A stretch of 56,145 bases of DNA. Source: a phage. This document shows, one piece after another, positions 6,951 to 56,082 of the stretch. Within the stretch, counting starts at the first letter, position 1. Each line of letters starts with the position of its first letter. The stretch lies in sequence record PZ386950.1; one strand, given 5' to 3'. The position numbers were made by a program, and so were the translations under genes. The notes below the pieces were generated by a model that made no database searches, was not told the origin of the DNA, and was given only the letters and a program-made list of their open reading frames with translations.

Positions 6951-7455
6951 TTACATGTTCCCCGTTGATCCAAACCCGCCATTACGCTGACTATCAACAT
7001 CTGGTAATTCTTCCACTTCAACCAGGTTAACAGGTTCGACACGTTCAACCATGAGCTGACAAACACGTTCACCGTCTGCGATAGTCTGTAATTTCTGCCC
7101 GTGGTTAGTCAGCGTAACGTAGTATTCTTCTTTGTAATCACGATCACCGATACCCACACAGTTGATTAGTGACAAACCGTGTTTAAGACTCATGCCGGAA
7201 CGTGGATAGAATTTAATGCAATATCCGCTATCAACTGACATTTTCAGACCAGTGGGGATCATAGCGCGGTCGCCGGGCCATAATGCGATTGTTCCTGCAA
7301 CAACCGGACGTTCCACTTTAGCGCCTGATTCTGTGAATATAGTTACCGATTCTTCCCACAGACAAGCACGAACGTCTAACCCTGCGCTGTCTGGTGTTGC
7401 CCGTGTCGGAAGTTCAGCGTGGGGTGTTAGTTTTTTTGATATACAGGTTAGTCAT
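6951..7455 (-). pseudogene. dut: dUTP diphosphatase interrupted by frameshift in A7 run
   Basis: all five dUTPase motifs present (AGLDVRA, PRSG, GIGDRDY, RVCQLMV, GGFGSTG); motif 1 lies upstream of the track ORF in a frame with no start codon; ATG at 7455 with RBS GAGGAA is in the +1 frame and joins after the A7 run at 7431-7437. Confidence 0.75.
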
Positions 7456-7489: not shown

Positions 7490-7531
7490 ATGTTAGTGTT
7501 ACTGCTTGCAATGTGTCAAGAATTATTTTAA
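7490..7531 (-). promoter_or_regulatory. sigma70-type promoter with UP element (copy 3)
   Basis: minus-strand TAAAATAATTCTTGACACATTGCA then about 17-18 bp and TAACAT-like -10. Confidence 0.55.
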
Positions 7532-7562
7532 ACTTCTGTCAACGTTAACCAATGAGGAACGA

Positions 7563-8222
7563 ATGATGTTTGAACATCCGTGGAACATACCTGCATATGA
7601 TGCTGAAAGTGAAAAACAATCACTTGACTATCGAATGTACGCACCAATTTTAAGAAATCCGTCACAAATTATGGAGAATGCTGATGACTTTGAAATCTTT
7701 GAAAAACGCCCTTGTGGTCCAGCAACACCTGTCAAAACAAAACTGTTAATGACACCGAAAGCCCGTGGTAATACTTACGAAGAATTCATTGCGACCGGGT
7801 GGAATGACGACCAGTTAGTCGAACATGGTTATGCTGTTCGTACTACAGACAAACGTTCCTGGTCACCAATGACCGTCGGAACTGAAACAATTACACCACC
7901 TTCAAACTGTCGGTGCACATTCACCCCTGTTCAACAACCATCAACAGCGTCTGACTTGCTGAAACAGGCTGAACAGCTACTGACAGAACGTGGTAAGCAG
8001 TATGACACGTCTGGTCAGGAACGTTCGTCAGCTAAAATCGTTGCTGCGTTTAACACAATTACCGGGCGCGACTTAACACCGGGTGAAGGGTGGTTGTTCC
8101 TGATGTTGTTAAAAGCGGTTCGTTTCTATTCCAACACTGAAACACCACATCGTGACAGTCTGGAAGACCTGATCAGCTATGCTGCATTACACGCAGAGGA
8201 ATATCTTAACGATGAACGGTGA
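7563..8222 (+). CDS. hypothetical protein with conserved 35-aa module and all-alpha C-terminal domain
   Basis: track ORF trimmed to ATG 7563 (RBS tgaggaa); contains TYEEFIATGWNDDQLVEHGYAV module shared with the SSB-like protein. Confidence 0.5.
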   Translation: MMFEHPWNIPAYDAESEKQSLDYRMYAPILRNPSQIMENADDFEIFEKRPCGPATPVKTKLLMTPKARGNTYEEFIATGWNDDQLVEHGYAVRTTDKRSWSPMTVGTETITPPSNCRCTFTPVQQPSTASDLLKQAEQLLTERGKQYDTSGQERSSAKIVAAFNTITGRDLTPGEGWLFLMLLKAVRFYSNTETPHRDSLEDLISYAALHAEEYLNDER

Positions 8223-15416: not shown

Positions 15417-15770
15417 ATGCGTAATTCATATGACCCGTCACTGAAATATGTTTTCACCCGTCCGATGCTGTGGAACGGTAAACAGATGTCCGCTGGCGAT
15501 AAAGTATCAACATCAAAAGCTACCCCGGCTGTTTTAAATGCCCTTGTGCGTATGCGCCACATTGAACCAGCTACTGCGACCGTTGAAGAACCAGTGACTA
15601 TAGCAAACGAAGAATCGGCATCAACCACATCTGCTGAAATCCGACGTGATGCGCCAAAAACCTATAACGTTTATGTTATGGGTATGCCGATGAATTCAGA
15701 ATCGTTTAGTAGTAAAAGTGCCGCTGCTGAATGGTGTGAATCTCAAGGCTTGACATATAACTATTCTTGA
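15417..15770 (+). CDS. hypothetical protein
   Basis: ATG 15417 with RBS GAGG; 117 aa. Confidence 0.5.
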   Translation: MRNSYDPSLKYVFTRPMLWNGKQMSAGDKVSTSKATPAVLNALVRMRHIEPATATVEEPVTIANEESASTTSAEIRRDAPKTYNVYVMGMPMNSESFSSKSAAAEWCESQGLTYNYS

Positions 15771-15996
15771 CCTATTGTTAAGTCAGTGACAGAACTGCAT
15801 AGCAGACACTATCACTTAATCGGTCGAAAGACGCCGGATAAACGTAACCGGCACACAACAGGTAAGAGCATTGAGTTGTTTAAAGTGGTGCTGCGACGAT
15901 TATCATACATCTCAGTGCTCTTATCGTTGTGGTGAATTGCAGTTCTCAGAAACAACCAGAAGATAAGCGCCTGGCACTGCAACCAAACACTCGCTG

Positions 15997-33340: not shown

Positions 33341-33379
33341 TGTTATCGCCTCAATAAGTTTTAAATAATTCTATACGGT

Positions 33380-35236
33380 TTACCGAAGTGGTGCAACGAG
33401 TTTTTCAGCTTCTTTGATGTAAAAATCATAATTGAGTGTTGCCCGGTTAAAACGTTTCATGTCGTTACACTCAGTGGTCAACCAACCTTTACACACTGAC
33501 ATGCGGCGTTCAGGCGCATCAGGGTTCAGTTTCAGTGATTTTGCCAGCGGTGGCATGACTTTTGTTAATGGTGCACCATCTGTGCTGACATAATAACGGG
33601 TAATGTTCTGAACCTGTTTGTCACCCCATAGTAATTTGCTATTACGCGGTACTTTCGTCACCAACATAAAATCGTGAATGTCTTCGTGTGATGTTATAAA
33701 ATCACGAATGTCTTTATTGTGTACCAGTGCTGCTTCAGCCGCTTTTGCAACAACCTGCATACTGTGGTTTTGATGCCAACCCAGATCAACACTGTGGCAA
33801 TAAGCACCTTTACGTTTAACCTTCTTACCACCTTCATAAACAGCGATGTAGTTATTTACATCGCGGATAAACATCACGTCATAAATCGCTTCTTCAAGCT
33901 GGAGTCTGGTTAATTTTTCCCACGCGTGACGAACCTGTTCTACTTGTTCGGTAAACACTCGTGGCACGTAAACCGTAAGACCATCTGTGTTAGCCTGGAT
34001 CATGGACAAACCAGGGATTTTCAGAAGTTCTTCAGCCAACATGCACAAAAGTAACTGTCCATTAATCGTAATAGCCATTGTATAAGCAGGATCGTAGAAC
34101 GGGCTGTATACGTTATTACTGTCGCCATACACACCGTTTAACGCCAGTTTTAACATTGCATTTTCTGGTGTACCTTTCGGGTAACTGGAACGCATGTCAT
34201 AAACATTTTTATAAATGGTGCAAAATTGTTTTCCCAAATGTGCAGGGTAAAGTTCATTACTAATCGCAAGGTTTGGATAAAAACTGGCAACGTCCAGATC
34301 GATGATCACATAATTTTCAGTGGACCTGATAGTTTGAGATTCAATAGACCCGTGGATACCACCCGTACCAAAATCAAACGAGAACCCGTTAATGTCTGCG
34401 CTTAAATCAGTAAACACACCTTTTGTTTCAGTGATGACCTGTTGACGTAACCAGTTAAGAACACGATTAAATTCAGGCTGTTCAAAACGAACATAAGGGA
34501 AAATCACACTGTTCAATGCGATTGATGGTCTGTGCGTCTGCCGTGGTTTTCTGCTACCCGGTTCGAAACATTGAATACCTGATTTTTTAAGTTCCATGAT
34601 GAAATAGTCTTTACCGATTTTCGTGTCGTTATGGTTCATGAAATTACGACCGTATTTAGCAGAAAGTTCACGACGAAAATCGATCAGCTTTTTACTGTGT
34701 TTATAAAACATCAAAGTCGCTTTTAAATCGTGTATCAGATATTGACGAAGCGTATCAATTTGAGAATCGGTTAAATAAGTCCCTGGGGTAAACGGAAGGT
34801 CTTCAATGTTTTCCATTCTCATGTTGAACTCAAGTGTTTTCAGACTTGTTCGTTTTGCCTGGTTGTCGAAATGATGAATTTTATACAAATCAAGTTGGGG
34901 AACTATCCAGTCTTTTTCCCACACCATATGAGCAAAACGATTTTCATCACCAGCGTTAATTATCGAATCACCTTTTTTGTAAATGTCTGCGTTGGTGATA
35001 TACATGATGTTGTTCAAAATAGAATGCTGAACAGGATAGTCGTAACCTAGATTGTTATAACCAACTTCTTCAGCACGATGTTCACGCAAATATTCTGTGA
35101 ACAGGTAAAAAGCCTGACGATCGTCGCGACGATGTGAAATCTCAAAAATATAAGGTGTTTCAGTTAATGCGTGAATAGCACCGAACAGGAAAACATTAGG
35201 ATAATTTTCAATATCGTGAATGTAAGCATCTGACAT
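33380..35236 (-). CDS. family B DNA polymerase (compact, with 3'-5' exonuclease motifs)
   Basis: Exo I HDIEN, Exo II YNNLGYDYP, Exo III YLIHD; polymerase motif A DLDVASFYPN, motif B KLALNGVYG, motif C ANTDG. Confidence 0.75.
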   Translation of the reverse strand: MSDAYIHDIENYPNVFLFGAIHALTETPYIFEISHRRDDRQAFYLFTEYLREHRAEEVGYNNLGYDYPVQHSILNNIMYITNADIYKKGDSIINAGDENRFAHMVWEKDWIVPQLDLYKIHHFDNQAKRTSLKTLEFNMRMENIEDLPFTPGTYLTDSQIDTLRQYLIHDLKATLMFYKHSKKLIDFRRELSAKYGRNFMNHNDTKIGKDYFIMELKKSGIQCFEPGSRKPRQTHRPSIALNSVIFPYVRFEQPEFNRVLNWLRQQVITETKGVFTDLSADINGFSFDFGTGGIHGSIESQTIRSTENYVIIDLDVASFYPNLAISNELYPAHLGKQFCTIYKNVYDMRSSYPKGTPENAMLKLALNGVYGDSNNVYSPFYDPAYTMAITINGQLLLCMLAEELLKIPGLSMIQANTDGLTVYVPRVFTEQVEQVRHAWEKLTRLQLEEAIYDVMFIRDVNNYIAVYEGGKKVKRKGAYCHSVDLGWHQNHSMQVVAKAAEAALVHNKDIRDFITSHEDIHDFMLVTKVPRNSKLLWGDKQVQNITRYYVSTDGAPLTKVMPPLAKSLKLNPDAPERRMSVCKGWLTTECNDMKRFNRATLNYDFYIKEAEKLVAPLR

Positions 35237-36315: not shown

Positions 36316-37461
36316 TTAAAGTGGACGTGCGCCAGTCGGCATCGTCACGGGTTTATTAAAAACAGATTCTGCCAGTGTGCTGTGACCTTTACGCGGGTCA
36401 CTGTCAGGTACTAAAACTGGCTGACCTTCTGGTTTTGTCGTACACATGTCAACAAGTGCCGGAGGCAGTGATTTTTCCAGTGTTGACAATGGTTTTAATT
36501 TACGTTCGTACAATGTTTCAGGGTTTACACCAAACATTGGTGCAGCACCGATCAGTTTTCCTTCGTCCGTAAGCTGACGTCGGGTTTGTTTTGTTGCAAG
36601 TTTAAAACCCGGTAAAGCCTTACCCATGCGAACAAAATGTAACCCCTGAGTATGTAACGCTGTTTTTGCTTCAGAAGAACGCGTATACAGTTCTTCAAGA
36701 AGTGCCAGACGACGCGCTACTTCTTCTGGTGTAAGTGATGGTGGTGCGTCAAGAACAGTAGCCAATTCTAAAACCCTCTCATACATTGCCGGACACATAC
36801 CACGCGCCGGACAGTAATGACAATGACTACCAACATTTAACGGTGCGTCTGGTTTATGTGCTTCGTTAAACCCGTGTTTAAATCGTTCAGCCCATTCCAT
36901 CAATGTTGCCCGGTTAAACTCCCATCGTCTTACAGGTCCGAGTGGGTGATAAGCCCGTGGCTGAACAATTGTGAACACAACGCGCTTAACAGTGTCGATG
37001 CAACGTTGGTCCAGTGCATAATAGACCCCCTGTGAGTTATCAACTGCGTCAACTGCAACATGACCGTATTTATAATCCCATACATAAAGCGTATCAGTAT
37101 TAAAGTCATACCAGCGATAATCACAGGTTCCGTACTGACCGGGTAACAACCAGTCAATGTGAATGCGAACTTCTGAAAACAGCGGATCAAGTTTCGCACC
37201 AACTGAAAGAACATCTGCTATAAAGTCATCCGCGTAAATGTGCATGTCTTCAGTAACCTGAACACCGTTAGGAGCAATACACGGCATTAATGGCGGTTTA
37301 CCTTTAATCTTCTGTTCTAACACCCAGTGCCCGGCTGTACCTTCTTCAGCACTGGGTGATGATGGTTCTACATAATCAATCCGCTGTGACAGTTGAACGC
37401 TACCAGGACAAGCTAACCAACGTTTTGATCCACTGGCACTAAAGGTAGCGTGACTTGTCAT
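36316..37461 (-). CDS. PD-(D/E)xK nuclease, DUF2800 / Cas4-like
   Basis: N-terminal FSASGSKRWLACPG and C-terminal Cys cluster CHYCPARGMCPA. Confidence 0.7.
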   Translation of the reverse strand: MTSHATFSASGSKRWLACPGSVQLSQRIDYVEPSSPSAEEGTAGHWVLEQKIKGKPPLMPCIAPNGVQVTEDMHIYADDFIADVLSVGAKLDPLFSEVRIHIDWLLPGQYGTCDYRWYDFNTDTLYVWDYKYGHVAVDAVDNSQGVYYALDQRCIDTVKRVVFTIVQPRAYHPLGPVRRWEFNRATLMEWAERFKHGFNEAHKPDAPLNVGSHCHYCPARGMCPAMYERVLELATVLDAPPSLTPEEVARRLALLEELYTRSSEAKTALHTQGLHFVRMGKALPGFKLATKQTRRQLTDEGKLIGAAPMFGVNPETLYERKLKPLSTLEKSLPPALVDMCTTKPEGQPVLVPDSDPRKGHSTLAESVFNKPVTMPTGARPL

Positions 37462-38231
37462 CAGAATGTCCCACCCATTTGTTTAACAGATTCAGCCTGA
37501 CCAACAATGTTTTCAGCATCAGCCGGGGCCGCGTTAATGCGTTCAATCAGTTCGATGATAGATTTCAGTTTTACCGGGTCGTCAATCTGCATCACGTTCT
37601 GAGTTTCATACAGCCCCATGATTCGCTGACTTAATGGCGCAGCACGGTCACCCGTAATTTGTCCAAACATCTGCATCAGTGCTGACTGAAGAACCTGTGT
37701 GTTATAAACTTTAGCCGGATCCGTGGTTACAGGTTGCTCGACAGGCGCGACTGGTGCAGCCGGTGCTGCTGGTACAACTGGAGCTACCGGAGCGGCAGGA
37801 ACCGCTGGAGCAGGATCAACAGGTGCTACATAACCCGGTGCAAGTTCTGCAGGTCCGGTATAACGCCCTGCTTCAACTGCTTCAGCGATAAGTTCACGTT
37901 TAACACCGTCAACAAACGCTTCATCCAGTTTTTTCTTCTGACGCCACAGACCGTCACCTTTGTTCAGGGATTTACTGTCAGTGTGGATACGCGGATCATG
38001 ACGCAAACCCCATTTGTCGAACTCTTCAGTGCTGGTTTCGTTATCGTCAACATCTTCAGTTGGTGCAGATACAACAGGCAGTGATTCAGCAACGACAGTT
38101 ACCGTTTCTTTAGTGATACCATCACCCTGAGCAGTCATGAGTGGTGCAGCACCAGTCGCAATAGCATTTGCCAGATTGTTGATCGCAGTTTCCAGACCCG
38201 GAGCAGTTACAAGTAATTTAACTTCGAACAT
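37461..38231 (-). CDS. hypothetical P/A-rich protein, first gene of replication operon
   Basis: 256 aa with PAAPVAPV-type low-complexity linker. Confidence 0.5.
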   Translation of the reverse strand: MFEVKLLVTAPGLETAINNLANAIATGAAPLMTAQGDGITKETVTVVAESLPVVSAPTEDVDDNETSTEEFDKWGLRHDPRIHTDSKSLNKGDGLWRQKKKLDEAFVDGVKRELIAEAVEAGRYTGPAELAPGYVAPVDPAPAVPAAPVAPVVPAAPAAPVAPVEQPVTTDPAKVYNTQVLQSALMQMFGQITGDRAAPLSQRIMGLYETQNVMQIDDPVKLKSIIELIERINAAPADAENIVGQAESVKQMGGTF

Positions 38232-38263
38232 TACGTTTTCCTCTTGTTGTTTGGTTGTCGCTA

Positions 38264-38305
38264 ACTTTAAAAGGTGTTGTGTAATCTGTCAAGAATTATT
38301 TTACA
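38264..38305 (-). promoter_or_regulatory. sigma70-type promoter with UP element (copy 6)
   Basis: minus-strand TAAAATAATTCTTGACAGATTACA plus 17 bp and TAAAGT. Confidence 0.6.
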
Positions 38306-38326
38306 CGCGCCTTTCGTTGATGCAGA

Positions 38327-38367
38327 TGTTAGAGGAATAAGTTGCAATGCGTCAAGAACTATTTTAA
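38327..38367 (-). promoter_or_regulatory. sigma70-type promoter with UP element (copy 7, tandem)
   Basis: minus-strand AAAATAGTTCTTGACGCATTGCA, about 60 bp upstream of copy 6. Confidence 0.5.
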
Positions 38368-38401
38368 ACTTTTTTCACGATTCGATATTACAGGGTAGAA
38401 A

Positions 38402-40063
38402 ATGAAAGCTCGTTATTATCAGACTGAAGCTATCAATAACGTATGTCAGGCATGGTCAAGCGGTGCTGACGACGTGATTCTTGTGCTTCCCACGGGGGCA
38501 GGAAAAACGTTCTGTATGTCTGAACTGGTAAAAACAAGAGACGGTGTAAAAGTCATCCAGGCGCACCGTAAAGAACTGGTTAGTCAAATCGCAATGGCTG
38601 TTGCTCGCCAGGGGTTAGCACACAGATTTATAGCGCAAAAAGATACTGTTAAGTTTGCAACTAATCAGCAGATGAAAACGCTTGGTTACAGTACCTATTC
38701 CCCCGGTGCTGACATCGTTATTACCAGTTCACAAACGTTAAGAACAAAACAGTACGAACGATGGTACAACGACGTGTCTCTTGTATTCAGCGACGAAGCG
38801 CATCACCTGGTGCGTGGCACACAGTGGGGAGACTGCCGGGAAAAATTCCCTAACGCTAAAGGTCTGGGTGTTACAGCTACACCGATCCGTGCTGACGGTA
38901 AAGGCTTGGGTCGTCATGCGTCAGGTTACGCAGATCAGATGATCATCGGTCCATCAATGCGTGAGTTAATCAGCCAACAACACCTGGCTGATTATCGCCT
39001 GATCATGGCTGAAACAGACCTGGAATTAACTGCAGAAATGATTTCCCATACTACGGGTGATTACAAACCCTCTGCGTTAAAAAAAGCGATGGAAGATTCA
39101 AACATCGTTGGTGATACCGTCAGTACGTGGAAAACGTATGCAGATGGTTTACTCACCGTTGTGTTTACGTGTGATGTGGATTCTGCTGAAGCACTTGCAA
39201 AAGAATTTCGCGATGCTGGTATTCCTGCAGAGGCGATCAGTTCACGAAACAGTAATCAGGAACGAGCGGATATTCTGGAACGTTTTGAACGACGTAAAAC
39301 ACTCGTGCTATGTAACAACGATTTATTCGGTGAAGGATACGACTGTCCGGCAATGGAATGTGCTGTAATGGACCGTCCAACAGAATCTTACTCTTTGTTT
39401 GTACAACAAATGGGTCGACCATTGCGTTTCAAACCGGGTAAAAAAGCACTGATTATTGATAAAGTCGGTAATGTTCGTCGATTTCTGGCCCGTGGTTTTC
39501 CACTTCCTGATCAGCATTACAACTGGTCTTTAGATGACCGTGACCGTCGTTCATCTAACAGCAGTGGGAACAGTAATACAACATGTACAAACAAGGGTGA
39601 TCCTGATAACGGTATTCCACCGTGTCTGAAGCCTTATCCGTCTGGTCTTCCGTGCTGCCCGTATTGTGGTCATGTTCCTGAAAAAGCCGAACGTTCAGGC
39701 CCGGATCGTGTAGAAGGTAATTTACGTGAACTGACACCTGAAGAACTGGAAGAATTACGCCGGGCAGTTGTGATAATCGACCGTGACCCTGTTGCGGTAA
39801 AAGAACAAATGTTAAACGCTGGTGCACCCCCTGTTGTAGCTTACAGTGCAATGAAAAACATTCAGGCAATGAACGATGCACAGCGTAAGTTACGCAGCAT
39901 GATCACCACATGGGCAGGTATTCAGCGTGATAAAGGTATACCCGTTGATGACGCTTACAAGATGTTTTACAGGGTGTTTGGTGTTGATGTACTTAGTGCA
40001 CAGGGCTTACGTACTCGTGAAGCTAACGAACTCGCCGCAAGGGTTGCAAGTTCATTAATCTGA
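38402..40063 (+). CDS. superfamily II DNA helicase
   Basis: Walker A LPTGAGKT, DEAH box FSDEAHH, helicase C-terminal region. Confidence 0.8.
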   Translation: MKARYYQTEAINNVCQAWSSGADDVILVLPTGAGKTFCMSELVKTRDGVKVIQAHRKELVSQIAMAVARQGLAHRFIAQKDTVKFATNQQMKTLGYSTYSPGADIVITSSQTLRTKQYERWYNDVSLVFSDEAHHLVRGTQWGDCREKFPNAKGLGVTATPIRADGKGLGRHASGYADQMIIGPSMRELISQQHLADYRLIMAETDLELTAEMISHTTGDYKPSALKKAMEDSNIVGDTVSTWKTYADGLLTVVFTCDVDSAEALAKEFRDAGIPAEAISSRNSNQERADILERFERRKTLVLCNNDLFGEGYDCPAMECAVMDRPTESYSLFVQQMGRPLRFKPGKKALIIDKVGNVRRFLARGFPLPDQHYNWSLDDRDRRSSNSSGNSNTTCTNKGDPDNGIPPCLKPYPSGLPCCPYCGHVPEKAERSGPDRVEGNLRELTPEELEELRRAVVIIDRDPVAVKEQMLNAGAPPVVAYSAMKNIQAMNDAQRKLRSMITTWAGIQRDKGIPVDDAYKMFYRVFGVDVLSAQGLRTREANELAARVASSLI

Positions 40064-40104
40064 TGGTAATCTGCATAGAAATATTTTAAACGTAAGGAAC
40101 TGTA

Positions 40105-40596
40105 ATGACAACGCTTGAACAATGGGCGATTCGTCACGGTATTAGTCAGATGGCGTTGTACGAGTTATACGCGCTTTATCAGCCTGATGGGACACCACAC
40201 GAAGACGGTGTAAGTGAAAGCGCCACCAGTAAAGAGTGTGAACTGATTGCGGCACGTTCCGGGCAACGTATCTGGCGTAATAACTCAGGTGCTCTGAAAA
40301 ACGAAAAAGGAATGATGGTTCGTTATGGTCTTGGTAACACCAGTGCGAAAATCAACGCTGTTATGAAGTCAAGCGACTACATCGGCATTAAAACCAAAAT
40401 CGTTACACCTGATATGATCGGTTCGAAAGTGGGCGTCTTTATTGCTGCCGAAATGAAACGCCCTGACTGGCACATGATCCCCAGTGATAAACGTGCACAA
40501 GCACAGGCCACTTTCGGTGCGATTGTTGAAAACGCAGGTGGTGAATTTCGTTTCATCACTCATCCTTCACAATTTGAAAAATGGATTAAACAATGA
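40105..40596 (+). CDS. VRR-NUC domain nuclease
   Basis: 163 aa with RNNSGAL and conserved acidic/Lys residues. Confidence 0.65.
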   Translation: MTTLEQWAIRHGISQMALYELYALYQPDGTPHEDGVSESATSKECELIAARSGQRIWRNNSGALKNEKGMMVRYGLGNTSAKINAVMKSSDYIGIKTKIVTPDMIGSKVGVFIAAEMKRPDWHMIPSDKRAQAQATFGAIVENAGGEFRFITHPSQFEKWIKQ

Positions 40597-40868
40597 ATAA
40601 AAAATCTTTAATCGCAACAATTGTAAGTCCTGAATACAAACAAAAACGTGAATCAATAACGTCTGAAATTGTTTCTGAATTTGATGACGTTAAAAAAACA
40701 AACCAGCGCGTATCACGTCTACAAAAACTGATTGATAACCACGGTATTGAAGCTGTTGCTAAACGTCTGAACGTTACTGAAATTCATGTTAAACGTAATC
40801 TGCTTACAGGGCGATCTGCTATCAACCTGGTCAAACTGATGGCTGCTGAACGTCAGTTCGGAGCGTAA
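40593..40868 (+). CDS. small putative DNA-binding protein
   Basis: 91-aa ORF, ATGA overlap. Confidence 0.4.
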   Translation: MNKKSLIATIVSPEYKQKRESITSEIVSEFDDVKKTNQRVSRLQKLIDNHGIEAVAKRLNVTEIHVKRNLLTGRSAINLVKLMAAERQFGA

Positions 40869-40871
40869 ATT

Positions 40872-43226
40872 ATGAAAGGGTTACTGAACCGTAAACAGTG
40901 GGTCATGTGGCGGCTTGAGACAGTCGCCGATCGTCCAAAACCAACGAAAGTACCATACAGTCCGGTACACGGTTACAAAGCCAGTACCACTAATCCTAAC
41001 GACTGGTCTGACTATCACACCGCGTTAGGTATGGCGCAAATGTACGGCATGTCTGGTGTTGGTTTTGTATTCACAGAAAACGACCCTTATTTCTTTATTG
41101 ATGTCGATAACTGTCTGGTAGATCAGGCAACAGCTACGTGGTCACCACTGGCGCATGAATTCGTAAACCGTTTTCCAAATGCTTACACTGAAGTCAGTCA
41201 GTCAGGAACAGGTTTGCATATAATCTGTGCTTATACCAGCATACCGGAAGGTTTTAACAGTCTGAACGACCAGAAAACCGGGCTGGAAATGTACTGGCGT
41301 GATCGTTTCGTCGCGATGACGCTCACGGGTAATGGTGATGTTGATATTGATTATACCCAGGGTATTCATGATTCTATTGCCCGGTATGGTCGCATCCGTT
41401 CAGACCGTTCCGCACGCTGGACAACAGCACCCTGTGATGACTGGTCAGGCCCGGCAGACGATGATGAACTGATTAAAATGGCGTTAAATTCGTCCAGTGC
41501 TGCTTCAGTATTTGGTAATAAAGCGTCATTTGCGGATCTGTGGAATGCAAACGTTGAACGCCTGTCTGTGTCATATCCCAGCGACCAGGGAAAAGACTAC
41601 AATGCATCTGCCGCTGATGCTGCCCTGTGCTCACACCTTGCTTTCTGGACCGGGAAAGATTGCGAACGTATTGAACGTCTATTTAACCGTTCCGGGCTGG
41701 TTCGTGGTAAATGGACAGACCGTCAGGATTACCGTGAGAATACGATTCTGGGCGCTGTGGAACGTTGCGATACTGTTTATCGTAGTCAACCGACGCTGAC
41801 ACCAGAACTGATGAAAGCAGTCACACCAGCGCCTACCATCGTTCCTAACGGTGGAACACCTGCGTACATGAGTGTGAAACCCGGTGAAGGTGCATATGGT
41901 TCAAACCACACGGTTAACGCATCCACTTTCGTTAATAACTATTATCCGAACAACACATTGATTTTCGTCCAGCAACAACCATACCGGTTCAACGGTCGCG
42001 TGTGGGAACGTGTCAGTGAAGATGAACTGAAACATCAAATTTCTATGGCAATGCTCGCCAGCGAACCAAAAGCTGACGTGATTAATGGTACGTACAAGGT
42101 TTTGTCGTATTTATTCACACGGGCTGATCGTGAGCTTGGAACATGGCCCGGCGTTGATGTATCACACTATATTGTTTGTCAGAACGGGATACTGGATGTA
42201 CACACGGGTAAATGTGATGCACATAACCCTGATTTCTTTACGACCAGTATTTTACCGTATAGCTACGATCCATTTGCTCGTGCACCAGCGTTTGAACAGT
42301 TTTTAAATACAACTCTGGAAGGTGATCAGGAACGTATTGCATTGTTGCAGGAATGGCTGGGTTACATGCTTGTCAACTCGTATGACTATCAGAAAGCGAT
42401 GCTGTTGATTGGTGCACCACGTTCCGGTAAAGGTACGATTGGTCGCATCATTCAGGCACTGGTAGGTGATGAAGCGTATGCAGGGATCACACTGGAGGGT
42501 TTAGCAAGTGATGCGGTACTTGAAACTGTGCTGGATAAATCTGTGCTATTTATCGGTGATGCTCACAGTGTGTCCGGGCCTGATCGCAACCGAATTCTGG
42601 ACCGTTTCAAATCTATTACAGGTTGTGATGCGATTCCGGTTAATCGTAAATATAAAGGTGCATGGAACGGTCGTTTACCGGGACGTATGACACTGGCTGC
42701 TAACAACATACCTGCATTTGCTGATGATTCCGGTGCAATGGCTAACCGTTTGCTGATCCTACCATTCAACATTTCGTTCCTGGGTCGTGAAGATACCACT
42801 CTGGAAGCACGACTGATGAAAGAACTACCGGGGATCTGTAACTGGGCGATTGAAGGTTTACAACGGTTACGTGCAAACGGACGGTTTACTGAACCAAAAG
42901 CAAGTCTGGAAGAACGTCAGGAAATTATGGATCAACAATCACCACTTAGAAGTTTTATCAGAGATTGTTGCGAATTGGTATCTGATGGTGAGGTGCACAC
43001 TGAAGAACTCTATGGTCGTTATCGTCTCTGGAAAACACAGGAAGGTGGTCCAGCAATGACTAAAACTGCATTTAGTCGGGCGTTTAAATCCACCCTTCGT
43101 GGTAAAGTGAAAAAAGACGTTGTTAATATAAATAACGTTCGACTAAACGGTTTCAGGGGTATTCGTCTTCTCCCTTTTCAGTCAACAGCTAATGTAGTGC
43201 CTTTCCCACCTGCGAGTAACGGTTAG
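40872..43226 (+). CDS. primase-helicase (primase-polymerase N-terminal domain plus P4/D5-type SF3 helicase)
   Basis: N-terminal SQSGTGLHIIC, C-terminal Walker A GAPRSGKGT. Confidence 0.8.
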   Translation: MKGLLNRKQWVMWRLETVADRPKPTKVPYSPVHGYKASTTNPNDWSDYHTALGMAQMYGMSGVGFVFTENDPYFFIDVDNCLVDQATATWSPLAHEFVNRFPNAYTEVSQSGTGLHIICAYTSIPEGFNSLNDQKTGLEMYWRDRFVAMTLTGNGDVDIDYTQGIHDSIARYGRIRSDRSARWTTAPCDDWSGPADDDELIKMALNSSSAASVFGNKASFADLWNANVERLSVSYPSDQGKDYNASAADAALCSHLAFWTGKDCERIERLFNRSGLVRGKWTDRQDYRENTILGAVERCDTVYRSQPTLTPELMKAVTPAPTIVPNGGTPAYMSVKPGEGAYGSNHTVNASTFVNNYYPNNTLIFVQQQPYRFNGRVWERVSEDELKHQISMAMLASEPKADVINGTYKVLSYLFTRADRELGTWPGVDVSHYIVCQNGILDVHTGKCDAHNPDFFTTSILPYSYDPFARAPAFEQFLNTTLEGDQERIALLQEWLGYMLVNSYDYQKAMLLIGAPRSGKGTIGRIIQALVGDEAYAGITLEGLASDAVLETVLDKSVLFIGDAHSVSGPDRNRILDRFKSITGCDAIPVNRKYKGAWNGRLPGRMTLAANNIPAFADDSGAMANRLLILPFNISFLGREDTTLEARLMKELPGICNWAIEGLQRLRANGRFTEPKASLEERQEIMDQQSPLRSFIRDCCELVSDGEVHTEELYGRYRLWKTQEGGPAMTKTAFSRAFKSTLRGKVKKDVVNINNVRLNGFRGIRLLPFQSTANVVPFPPASNG

Positions 43227-43245
43227 TCATTGCACAAGGATGTGT

Positions 43246-43285
43246 AAAATAATTCTTGACGAATTACAGACGTGTGCGCTATAGT
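43246..43285 (+). promoter_or_regulatory. sigma70-type promoter with UP element (copy 8)
   Basis: AAAATAATTCTTGACGAATTACA plus 18 bp and TATAGT. Confidence 0.65.
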
Positions 43286-43316
43286 CTGTACATCAAGTGA
43301 ACAAGGAGTGATTGTT

Positions 43317-43529
43317 ATGAAACCACATTACCGATTAATGAGACTTTCACAGTGTCCTAACGGAACACGGTTTTATTTTTATCGTCTGAAGCAACTATTA
43401 CCTTTCACGTTAATTGCTAACAGCTTCAAGAAACACGAAAGTATTTATCACGAAGGTCACGATTTTAATATAACCGCGCGAAAATACAGAACGTCTACTC
43501 ATAAACTTGTGTGGGCTAAGGTGGGTTAA
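43317..43529 (+). CDS. hypothetical protein
   Basis: ATG 43317 with RBS AAGGAG; 70 aa. Confidence 0.5.
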   Translation: MKPHYRLMRLSQCPNGTRFYFYRLKQLLPFTLIANSFKKHESIYHEGHDFNITARKYRTSTHKLVWAKVG

Positions 43530-56040: not shown

Positions 56041-56082
56041 ACTATACAGATACATGAGTAATCTGTCAAGAATTATTTTAAA
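56041..56082 (-). promoter_or_regulatory. sigma70-type promoter with UP element (copy 11)
   Basis: minus-strand TTAAAATAATTCTTGACAGATTACT plus 17 bp and TATAGT. Confidence 0.65.

Follow-up and report, generated by a model that had tools for sequence, protein, structure and literature searches.

The window analysed here, by which we mean the whole stretch of 56,145 nucleotides of phage DNA in sequence record PZ386950.1, carries between two diverging sets of replication genes a 170-bp region that probably works as a compact divergent control region, in which host sigma-70 polymerase would be offered two leftward promoters, P1 and P2, and a rightward one embedded in P2 (Table 1). In the mechanism that we propose, host sigma-70 RNA polymerase would read the region leftward from P1, the canonical and presumably stronger site, and from P2, presumably the weaker, with starts about 63 nt apart, and both transcripts would enter the operon for a 256-aa protein, an exonuclease, an SSB and a DNA polymerase. 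P2 would act as a second entry point, with an unstructured leader that is longer by 63 nt. The helicase-primase operon would most likely be started from a weaker promoter lying back-to-back inside P2. At P2, only 2 bp lie between the two -35 hexamers and about 58 bp between the predicted starts, so that binding of the polymerase in one orientation should exclude the other, and in the Sasha lineage P1 may release leftward expression from the competition at P2. That the sites fire, how strong they are relative to one another and that they exclude each other is what we infer from their anatomy, orientation, geometry, conservation and distribution.

By its identity to relatives, the window is the genome of a Sashavirus/Nonanavirus (9NA-like) siphophage. 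Over 2.7 kb around the promoters, Escherichia phage KarinMuster_Bas82, AVIO78A and the Salmonella phages Sasha, Sergei and Solent are 96-97% identical to it, and Salmonella phage 9NA and Klebsiella phage Carvaje, with the relatives of the latter, are about 75-77% identical. Position 1 is the ATG of the terminase large subunit (TerL; ORF 1-1764, 587 aa, equal in length to the TerL of 9NA), the window being circularly permuted and beginning at that codon. The leftward operon encodes the 256-aa protein, for which no Pfam family was found, followed by a DUF2800/PD-(D/E)XK exonuclease, a Gp2.5/Enc34-type ssDNA-binding protein and the DNA polymerase. The rightward operon opens with the SF2 helicase gene, whose product matches the Pfam families ResIII, DEAD and Helicase_C, and these 170 bp are the only upstream space available to that gene and to the primase operon behind it. 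The weak Shine-Dalgarno (SD) sequence of the helicase gene has a ribosome-binding site (RBS) annotated at the equivalent place in the record of phage Sasha. Given that no RNA polymerase or sigma factor is found among the annotated proteins of 9NA, the host polymerase is the expected reader of the promoters.

Table 1. Predicted promoters of the divergent region and their gene context, in window coordinates; arrows follow the leftward reading direction.
Feature	Position	Strand	Sequence or content
Intergenic region	38232-38401		170 bp, between minus-strand gene 37461-38231 and plus-strand helicase gene 38402-40063
Leftward replication/recombination operon, predicted to be served by P1 and P2	33380..38231	-	
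RBS and ATG of the 256-aa protein gene	38229..38245	-	AAGAGGAAAA
P1, proximal leftward promoter (predicted)	38264..38303	-	TTGACA-17-TAAAGT, consensus 10/12
P1 upstream block	38303->38293	-	TAAAATAATTC
P1 -35	38292->38287	-	TTGACA
P1 spacer block	38285->38280	-	ATTACA
P1 -10	38269->38264	-	TAAAGT
P1 predicted start	near 38256-38259	-	
P2, distal leftward promoter (predicted)	38326..38366	-	TTGACG-18-TAACAT, consensus 9/12
P2 upstream block		-	TAAAATAGTTC, one mismatch to the family motif
P2 -35	38355->38350	-	TTGACG
P2 spacer block	38348->38342	-	ATTGCAA
P2 -10	38331->38326	-	TAACAT
P2 predicted start	near 38318-38321	-	
Candidate rightward promoter, back-to-back with P2	38342..38370	+	TTGCAA-17-TAAACT
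Candidate rightward -35	38342-38347	+	TTGCAA
Candidate rightward -10	38365-38370	+	TAAACT
Candidate rightward predicted start	38377	+	A; leader of 25 nt
Weak SD and helicase ATG	38392..38404	+	AGGGT
Rightward replication operon	38402..43226	+	SF2 helicase, exonuclease, two small genes, primase

The two leftward promoters belong to a family that is spread over the window. A 16-mer motif, which on the opposite strand takes the form TAAAATAATTCTTGAC-nn-ATTRCA, occurs in 11 exact copies in 56 kb where none would be expected, and a chance repeat can thus be ruled out; when up to 3 mismatches are allowed, there are 15 matches, compared with 1.95 on average and never more than 5 in 100 shuffles. All 11 copies have a TAnnnT-type hexamer 17-18 bp after TTGAC (TATGCT, TAACCT, TATCTT, TAAAGT, TATAGT and TAGACT are among those seen), and for 9 of them an SD sequence and a start codon are found in the direction of the motif, 68-74 nt from its start. 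The block immediately upstream of the -35, TAAAATAATTC, is invariant, and in every copy an A-rich stretch, AAAATAATT, lies at about -46 to -38, a position that corresponds to the proximal subsite only of an UP element. Most of the top sigma-70 scores of the window fall on copies of the motif in a position-weight scan, the scores of which are approximate here and below, as it was built on textbook hexamer frequencies; its ranks refer to the 112,230 positions of the window, and a separate consensus scan used a cutoff of 9/12. Across the window, 9NA and Carvaje, the 16-mer together with ATTRCA is nearly invariant in 30 copies, each with at most one mismatch, while the flanks and the -10 hexamers vary among them, and in the latter two phages the motif is letter-perfect despite an identity of only about 75% in the surrounding DNA. 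We read the copies as sigma-70-type promoters with a proximal UP-like A-tract, and the family as the stereotyped predicted promoters that this phage would use for its small-gene clusters and replication genes.

A first-pass annotation, which covered 38264-38401 (bounded by the proximal -10 hexamer on one side and by the base preceding the helicase ATG on the other), had reported two copies of the motif 63 bp apart, both pointing into the minus-strand replication operon, and had described the same 170 bp as the upstream region of the plus-strand helicase gene. These observations are borne out: the copies are GTCAAGAATTATTTTA at 38288-38303 and GTCAAGAACTATTTTA at 38351-38366, both on the + strand as 16-mers, their orientation and geometry with respect to the leftward operon are those of the phage's other promoters, and the gap at 38232-38401 does separate diverging genes. 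The description of the region as a divergent control region likewise holds at the level of sequence, while the plus-strand promoter, which that annotation had not located, is now assigned to a candidate site within P2.

In a consensus scan of 37900-38700, exactly two promoter-like sites were found, both on the minus strand. P1 matches the -35 consensus at 6/6 positions, scores 14.4 bits in the position-weight scan (rank 2 in the window), and has an SD sequence and an ATG at the canonical offset, 72 nt from the start of its motif. P2 matches the -35 consensus at 5/6 positions and scores 11.7 bits (rank 12); it is the sole copy of the 11 with a substitution in the 16-mer, its spacer is 18 bp, and it has no gene at the canonical offset, a place that is occupied by P1, its first SD sequence and ATG coming at 135 nt, which equals 72 + 63. 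The -10 hexamers of P1, P2 and the plus-strand candidate all have T1, A2 and T6 at a distance of 17-18 bp. Given that the consensus scan found no terminator-like site in 38232-38401, transcripts from P2 would run through P1, and the sole reading frame between the two is a start-stop, GTG-TAA; the sites are thus in the same orientation with neither a terminator nor a gene between them, as tandem promoters should be. A search against Rfam gave no match at E <= 1, and a structured leader can be ruled out, as the predicted leaders fold no better than shuffles (z about 0). The similarity between the two copies is limited to 27 nt, which are 81% identical, and a 63-bp tandem duplication unit is ruled out because the copies have only this motif region in common.

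For the rightward operon, the space is tight. Only 35 nt separate the motif of P2 from the helicase ATG, which means that a local plus-strand promoter has to overlap P2, and the candidate does: its -35 is palindromic and falls within the spacer block of P2, its -10 falls within the A/T block upstream of P2, and the upstream halves of the two sites overlap, with the P2 -35 at 38350-38355 next to the plus-strand one at 38342-38347, so that at the level of sequence they stand back-to-back. With a position-weight score of 10.1 bits (rank 41 of 112,230), the candidate is the best plus-strand site of the region, the next one scoring 6.9, and the same scan, over the 1.9 kb that precede the intergenic region, found no better plus-strand promoter. 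It matches 8/12 consensus positions (4/6 in the -35), which leaves it short of the 9/12 required in the consensus scan. In the window alone, where 41 sites are as good or better, the chance expectation of a site this good at this spot is roughly 5%, and its conservation is partly forced, since the TA of its -10 and its entire spacer belong to the motif of the minus face.

Our confidence in the rightward candidate is raised by its recurrence in 9NA and Carvaje, in a more diverged relative and at a second junction of the window. At the equivalent position, 9NA and Carvaje have TTGCAA-17-TATGAT, which ranks 29 and 23 genome-wide, respectively, and is also found in four further Klebsiella relatives and in IMG/VR contigs; in the 9NA group, an RBS and a small ORF come after it at the normal distance. 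Contig L020/L046, with a helicase of 70% identity, has the motif in inverted orientation and with TTAAC as a degraded form of TTGAC. There, positions 1350-1500 of L020 (equivalent to about 6640-6760 of L046) contain AAGTTA-17-TTGCAA-17-TAAGAT, the first hexamer being TAACTT on the other strand, and one -35 hexamer may therefore be common to two divergent promoters in L020. Furthermore, the only other compact divergent junction of the window has an identical TTGCAA-17-TAAACT reverse face at 7506-7534. In this junction (7506-7567), a leftward family promoter has its motif at 7515-7530, and the reverse face is followed by GAGGAA and then by the ATG of the plus-strand gene at 7564/7567; the arrangement is kept in IMG/VR relatives and, as TTGTAA-17-TAAACT, in 9NA. 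TTGCAA-type copies for which the plus-strand gene is 65-72 nt away, or for which there is none, are without the essential T at position 6 of the -10.

A broader rule failed. A G in the spacer block (ATTGCA rather than ATTACA) does not mark every divergent junction, as the portal, gp29 and gp37 junctions of 9NA carry A and several G-type copies of Carvaje have CTGCAA in place of TTGCAA. What survives is the narrower pattern of TTGCAA plus TAnnnT at compact junctions. With the plus-strand candidate embedded in it, the distal copy, P2, may be as important for the helicase operon, or more so.

Both copies of the motif are kept in 12/12 Sasha-type database records and in three IMG/VR contigs. In the Sasha-type records, the region is 98.3-99.5% identical; in one relative, L015, the spacing is 64 bp. 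In comparison with SP-062, the intergenic region has 3 mismatches, while 13.9 are predicted from the rate in the coding flanks (P = 5e-4). The five positions that vary (38273, 38276, 38282, 38307 and 38349, in four relatives) avoid all six hexamers, but with so few differences this avoidance of constrained positions (P of about 0.12) does not reach significance on its own; genomes of the Sasha type are too alike for the constraint on the hexamers to be gauged from them. IMG/VR scans for diverse relatives returned the same three lineages and one more distant contig.

On this distribution, only the Sasha lineage has the tandem, and a 63-bp indel between two motif copies separates the lineages. 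A single leftward promoter, TTGACA-17-TAACCT, is found in 9NA, Carvaje, four more Klebsiella phages and six IMG/VR contigs (the single-promoter relatives being 9NA, Carvaje, KPN_H2, KP13-27, S10a, BU9 and L016-L022). The upstream flank and the start of the spacer of this promoter (GAATGTGAAA... and CATTGCAAC) resemble P2, while its -10 and leader (TAACCTTAGCC...AACCAA) align with P1; the single promoter looks like a hybrid of P1 and P2. No donor was found for the 38-nt segment between the promoters in a blastn-short comparison with seven IMG/VR loci, 9NA, Carvaje and the window itself, in which no match was longer than 13 nt. The lineages also differ on the helicase side of the same junction, where the 9NA/Klebsiella lineage has a conserved basic ORF of 47-49 aa (MGLYSFIRHNVFFDRVTGKY...), translationally coupled to a helicase gene that starts with GTG (43133-43378 in 9NA and 42888-43031 in Carvaje, equivalent to 38367-38401 of the window), while the Sasha lineage is without this ORF and the N-terminus of its helicase is different. 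At this ORF/helicase junction, L015 and PJ16 look like intermediates between the two lineages, and the annotated gp69 of 9NA (81 aa), which overlaps the promoter, is probably too long.

The existence of a lineage that manages with one leftward promoter at the same locus raises the question of whether P1 alone drives the leftward operon, with the leftward face of P2 being a weak or dead relic of the 63-bp rearrangement that has been kept for the helicase promoter and/or as a regulator site. Its changed 16-mer base, which is unique among the 11 copies, its 18-bp spacer and the lack of a gene at 68-74 nt would all suit a relic, as would the higher rank of P1 in the position-weight scan (2 compared with 12). 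Nevertheless, we hold such a relic to be unlikely: P2 keeps TTGAC and a TAACAT with the key A2 and T6, it stands within the top 12 sites of the window, equal to or better than several single promoters that must serve clusters of their own (for instance, 6015 and 11828), and its 16-mer is 15/16 intact, although it would have been free to drift as the mere spacer of a plus-strand promoter. Two leftward promoters are, for these reasons, the reading that we prefer.

Besides the promoter copies, the window has two degenerate copies of the motif that are without TTGAC, at 33361-33384 (+ orientation) and at about 40073-40100 (- orientation), one of which is TTAAATAATTCTATAC-GGTTTACC and the other TAAAATATTTCTATGC-AGATTACC. 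One occupies the short spacer that follows the DNA polymerase gene and the other that which follows the helicase gene, in the two replication operons, and each is antisense to its own operon and points inward at the divergent control region. Both are kept at the same places in 9NA (38218 and 45064) and in Carvaje (37907 and 44717). A role as regulator sites or as weak antisense promoters is conceivable, as is an origin from promoters that have decayed.

The invariance of 16 + 6 nt in the motif exceeds what sigma-70 requires, which hints at an extra factor outside the promoter model. In addition, the motif contains an imperfect dyad, TAATTC-N5-GRATTA, which is centred on the -35 and is perfect in copies 11817 and 43245. 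One could imagine that the 24-nt module is both a two-faced cassette, whose ATTGCAA spacer would supply the -35 of the opposite strand and let a single cassette serve two diverging operons (in L020, through one -35 shared by both directions), and the operator of a putative phage regulator that would switch all early units together, with the two copies cooperatively bound and the TTGAC-less copies at 33361 and about 40090 also bound; such a combination seems distinctly unlikely to us. We find it distinctly improbable that the 16-mer and ATTRCA are primarily the site of a phage or host protein, an operator or activator site over the -35, that would coordinate the early units through cooperatively binding copies. 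A conservation far above the needs of sigma-70, spacer block included, in 30 copies with at most one mismatch from three genomes that are about 75% identical would fit such a site, as would the dyad, the conservation of the TTGAC-less copies at two non-promoter positions (33361 and about 40073-40100) and a spacing of 63 bp between the copies, which is about six helical turns. However, a symmetric operator should be conserved in both halves of the dyad, of which only the left is invariant here, the right one being variable; one relative, L015, has a spacing of 64 bp, and no candidate regulator was identified. Moreover, the A-rich block fits the proximal subsite of the UP element, the consensus of which is reportedly AAAAAARNR, and concerted evolution could also account for the identity among copies. 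A regulator would, in any case, add to the promoters without excluding them.

As for the rightward transcript, it is highly improbable that the helicase-primase mRNA comes from a plus-strand promoter antisense within the leftward genes, or from read-through, with TTGCAA-17-TAAACT being fortuitous, since, although the embedded candidate matches only 8/12 positions and a comparable plus-strand site, CTGACT-17-TAAACT, is found at 37682 in the gene for the 256-aa protein (9.7 bits, rank 53), a start there would need a 700-nt antisense leader colliding with transcription from P1 and P2, and TTGCAA-17-TAnnnT is seen again at this place in three diverged lineages as well as at the second compact junction, in the 9NA group with an RBS and a small helicase-coupled ORF after it at the normal distance.

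Other sites in the window deserve a brief description. Promoters 3803, 6026 and 43245 have in common a conserved leader, CATCAA(N)TGAACAGGRG, that follows the -10, and transcription probably starts at the A of CATCAA. The leader of P2 (38312-38324) is a shortened version, CATCAACGAAAGG, that runs directly into the GTG-TAA start-stop at the edge of P1; the shortened leader together with the start-stop suggests that there may once have been a small gene between P2 and P1. Downstream of the head genes, TTGACA-17-TATTGT at 15750-15778 (+) adjoins a degenerate motif, TATAACTATTCTTGAC, and is kept in 9NA (19734) and Carvaje (19708), so the block of structural genes may contain a promoter of its own. 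Across the ends of the window, the promoter at 56065-56080 and TerL diverge from each other at a distance of 65 nt, and the same is true of 9NA (4005 and 4070). Finally, a dUTPase-like gene (6951-7455) downstream of the promoter at 7530 appears to be frameshifted, its ATG at 7455 being 1 nt out of frame with an ORF at 6951-7316, and a T-run at 7431-7437 has seven T in the window compared with six in two relatives, L027 and L031. The frameshift may reflect an error of sequencing, slippage or a pseudogene.

Earlier descriptions of these promoters are few. In the AVIO78A paper, seven promoters were annotated by consensus matching only, and the corresponding record marks only P1 in the 170-bp region, while the genome announcement of 9NA does not mention promoters. 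The motif is printed in no paper of the literature that we searched, which did not include Zeng et al. 2019 (J Virol), and the same literature yielded no transcription-start or expression evidence for 9NA/Sasha-like phages. The arrangement is ordinary phage gene control of known kinds, that is, tandem and back-to-back promoters, with what is probably a modest twist, an opposite-strand promoter embedded in the outer copy, and it leaves the general principles of transcription unchanged. If our reading is correct, the replication module of the 9NA/Sasha-like phages, which have been little studied and now include the BASEL phage Bas82, would have a concrete transcription map, in which the positions of three predicted starts are given, two of them leftward and one rightward. 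The reading would also define a reusable early-promoter cassette, which could serve as a strong, compact and possibly two-way promoter in E. coli, Salmonella and Klebsiella, and it would mean that a conserved promoter cassette marks the points of rearrangement between lineages.

Tandem sigma-70 promoters that feed one operon are well known, for instance A1/A2/A3 in the early region of phage T7 and P1/P2 of the rrn operons of E. coli, and the phage examples are strong early promoters. As in those systems, P1 and P2 are host-polymerase promoters, here predicted ones, that have the same orientation, lie within about 100 bp and would read through into the same genes. In contrast to them, the tandem sites described here are copies of one stereotyped 24-nt module used 11 times in the genome, the upstream copy appears to carry a putative promoter for the opposite strand, and the tandem is confined to the Sasha lineage. 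A parallel can also be drawn with UP-element promoters of the rrnB P1 type, which share an A-rich stretch immediately upstream of the -35, here AAAATAATT at about -46 to -38; the stretch found here, a putative site for alpha-CTD, amounts to the proximal half alone, and, unlike UP elements, it does not vary between copies or genera.

Back-to-back divergent promoters with overlapping upstream regions are exemplified by PR and PRM of phage lambda. The likeness to the region studied here lies in divergent core promoters with abutting or overlapping upstream halves, in the coordination of two opposite operons from about 100 bp, and in the expectation that the occupancy of one promoter would affect the other. 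Unlike in lambda, there is no known operator or repressor here, the -35 hexamers are 2 bp apart with starts predicted to be about 58 bp apart, and the candidate rightward -35 is a palindrome in the spacer of the leftward promoter. The bidirectional promoters described by Warman et al. 2021 (Grainger lab) have a shared symmetric -10 and starts that are mostly 18 bp apart, or 10 or 23 bp (PMC12825309). A promoter of that kind can be ruled out in our case, as each direction has a -10 hexamer of its own (38326-38331 and 38365-38370) and about 58 bp lie between the predicted starts. The two designs are nevertheless alike in that symmetry would let RNA polymerase engage either way, one binding event excluding the other, but the symmetric element in this phage is the -35-like TTGCAA.
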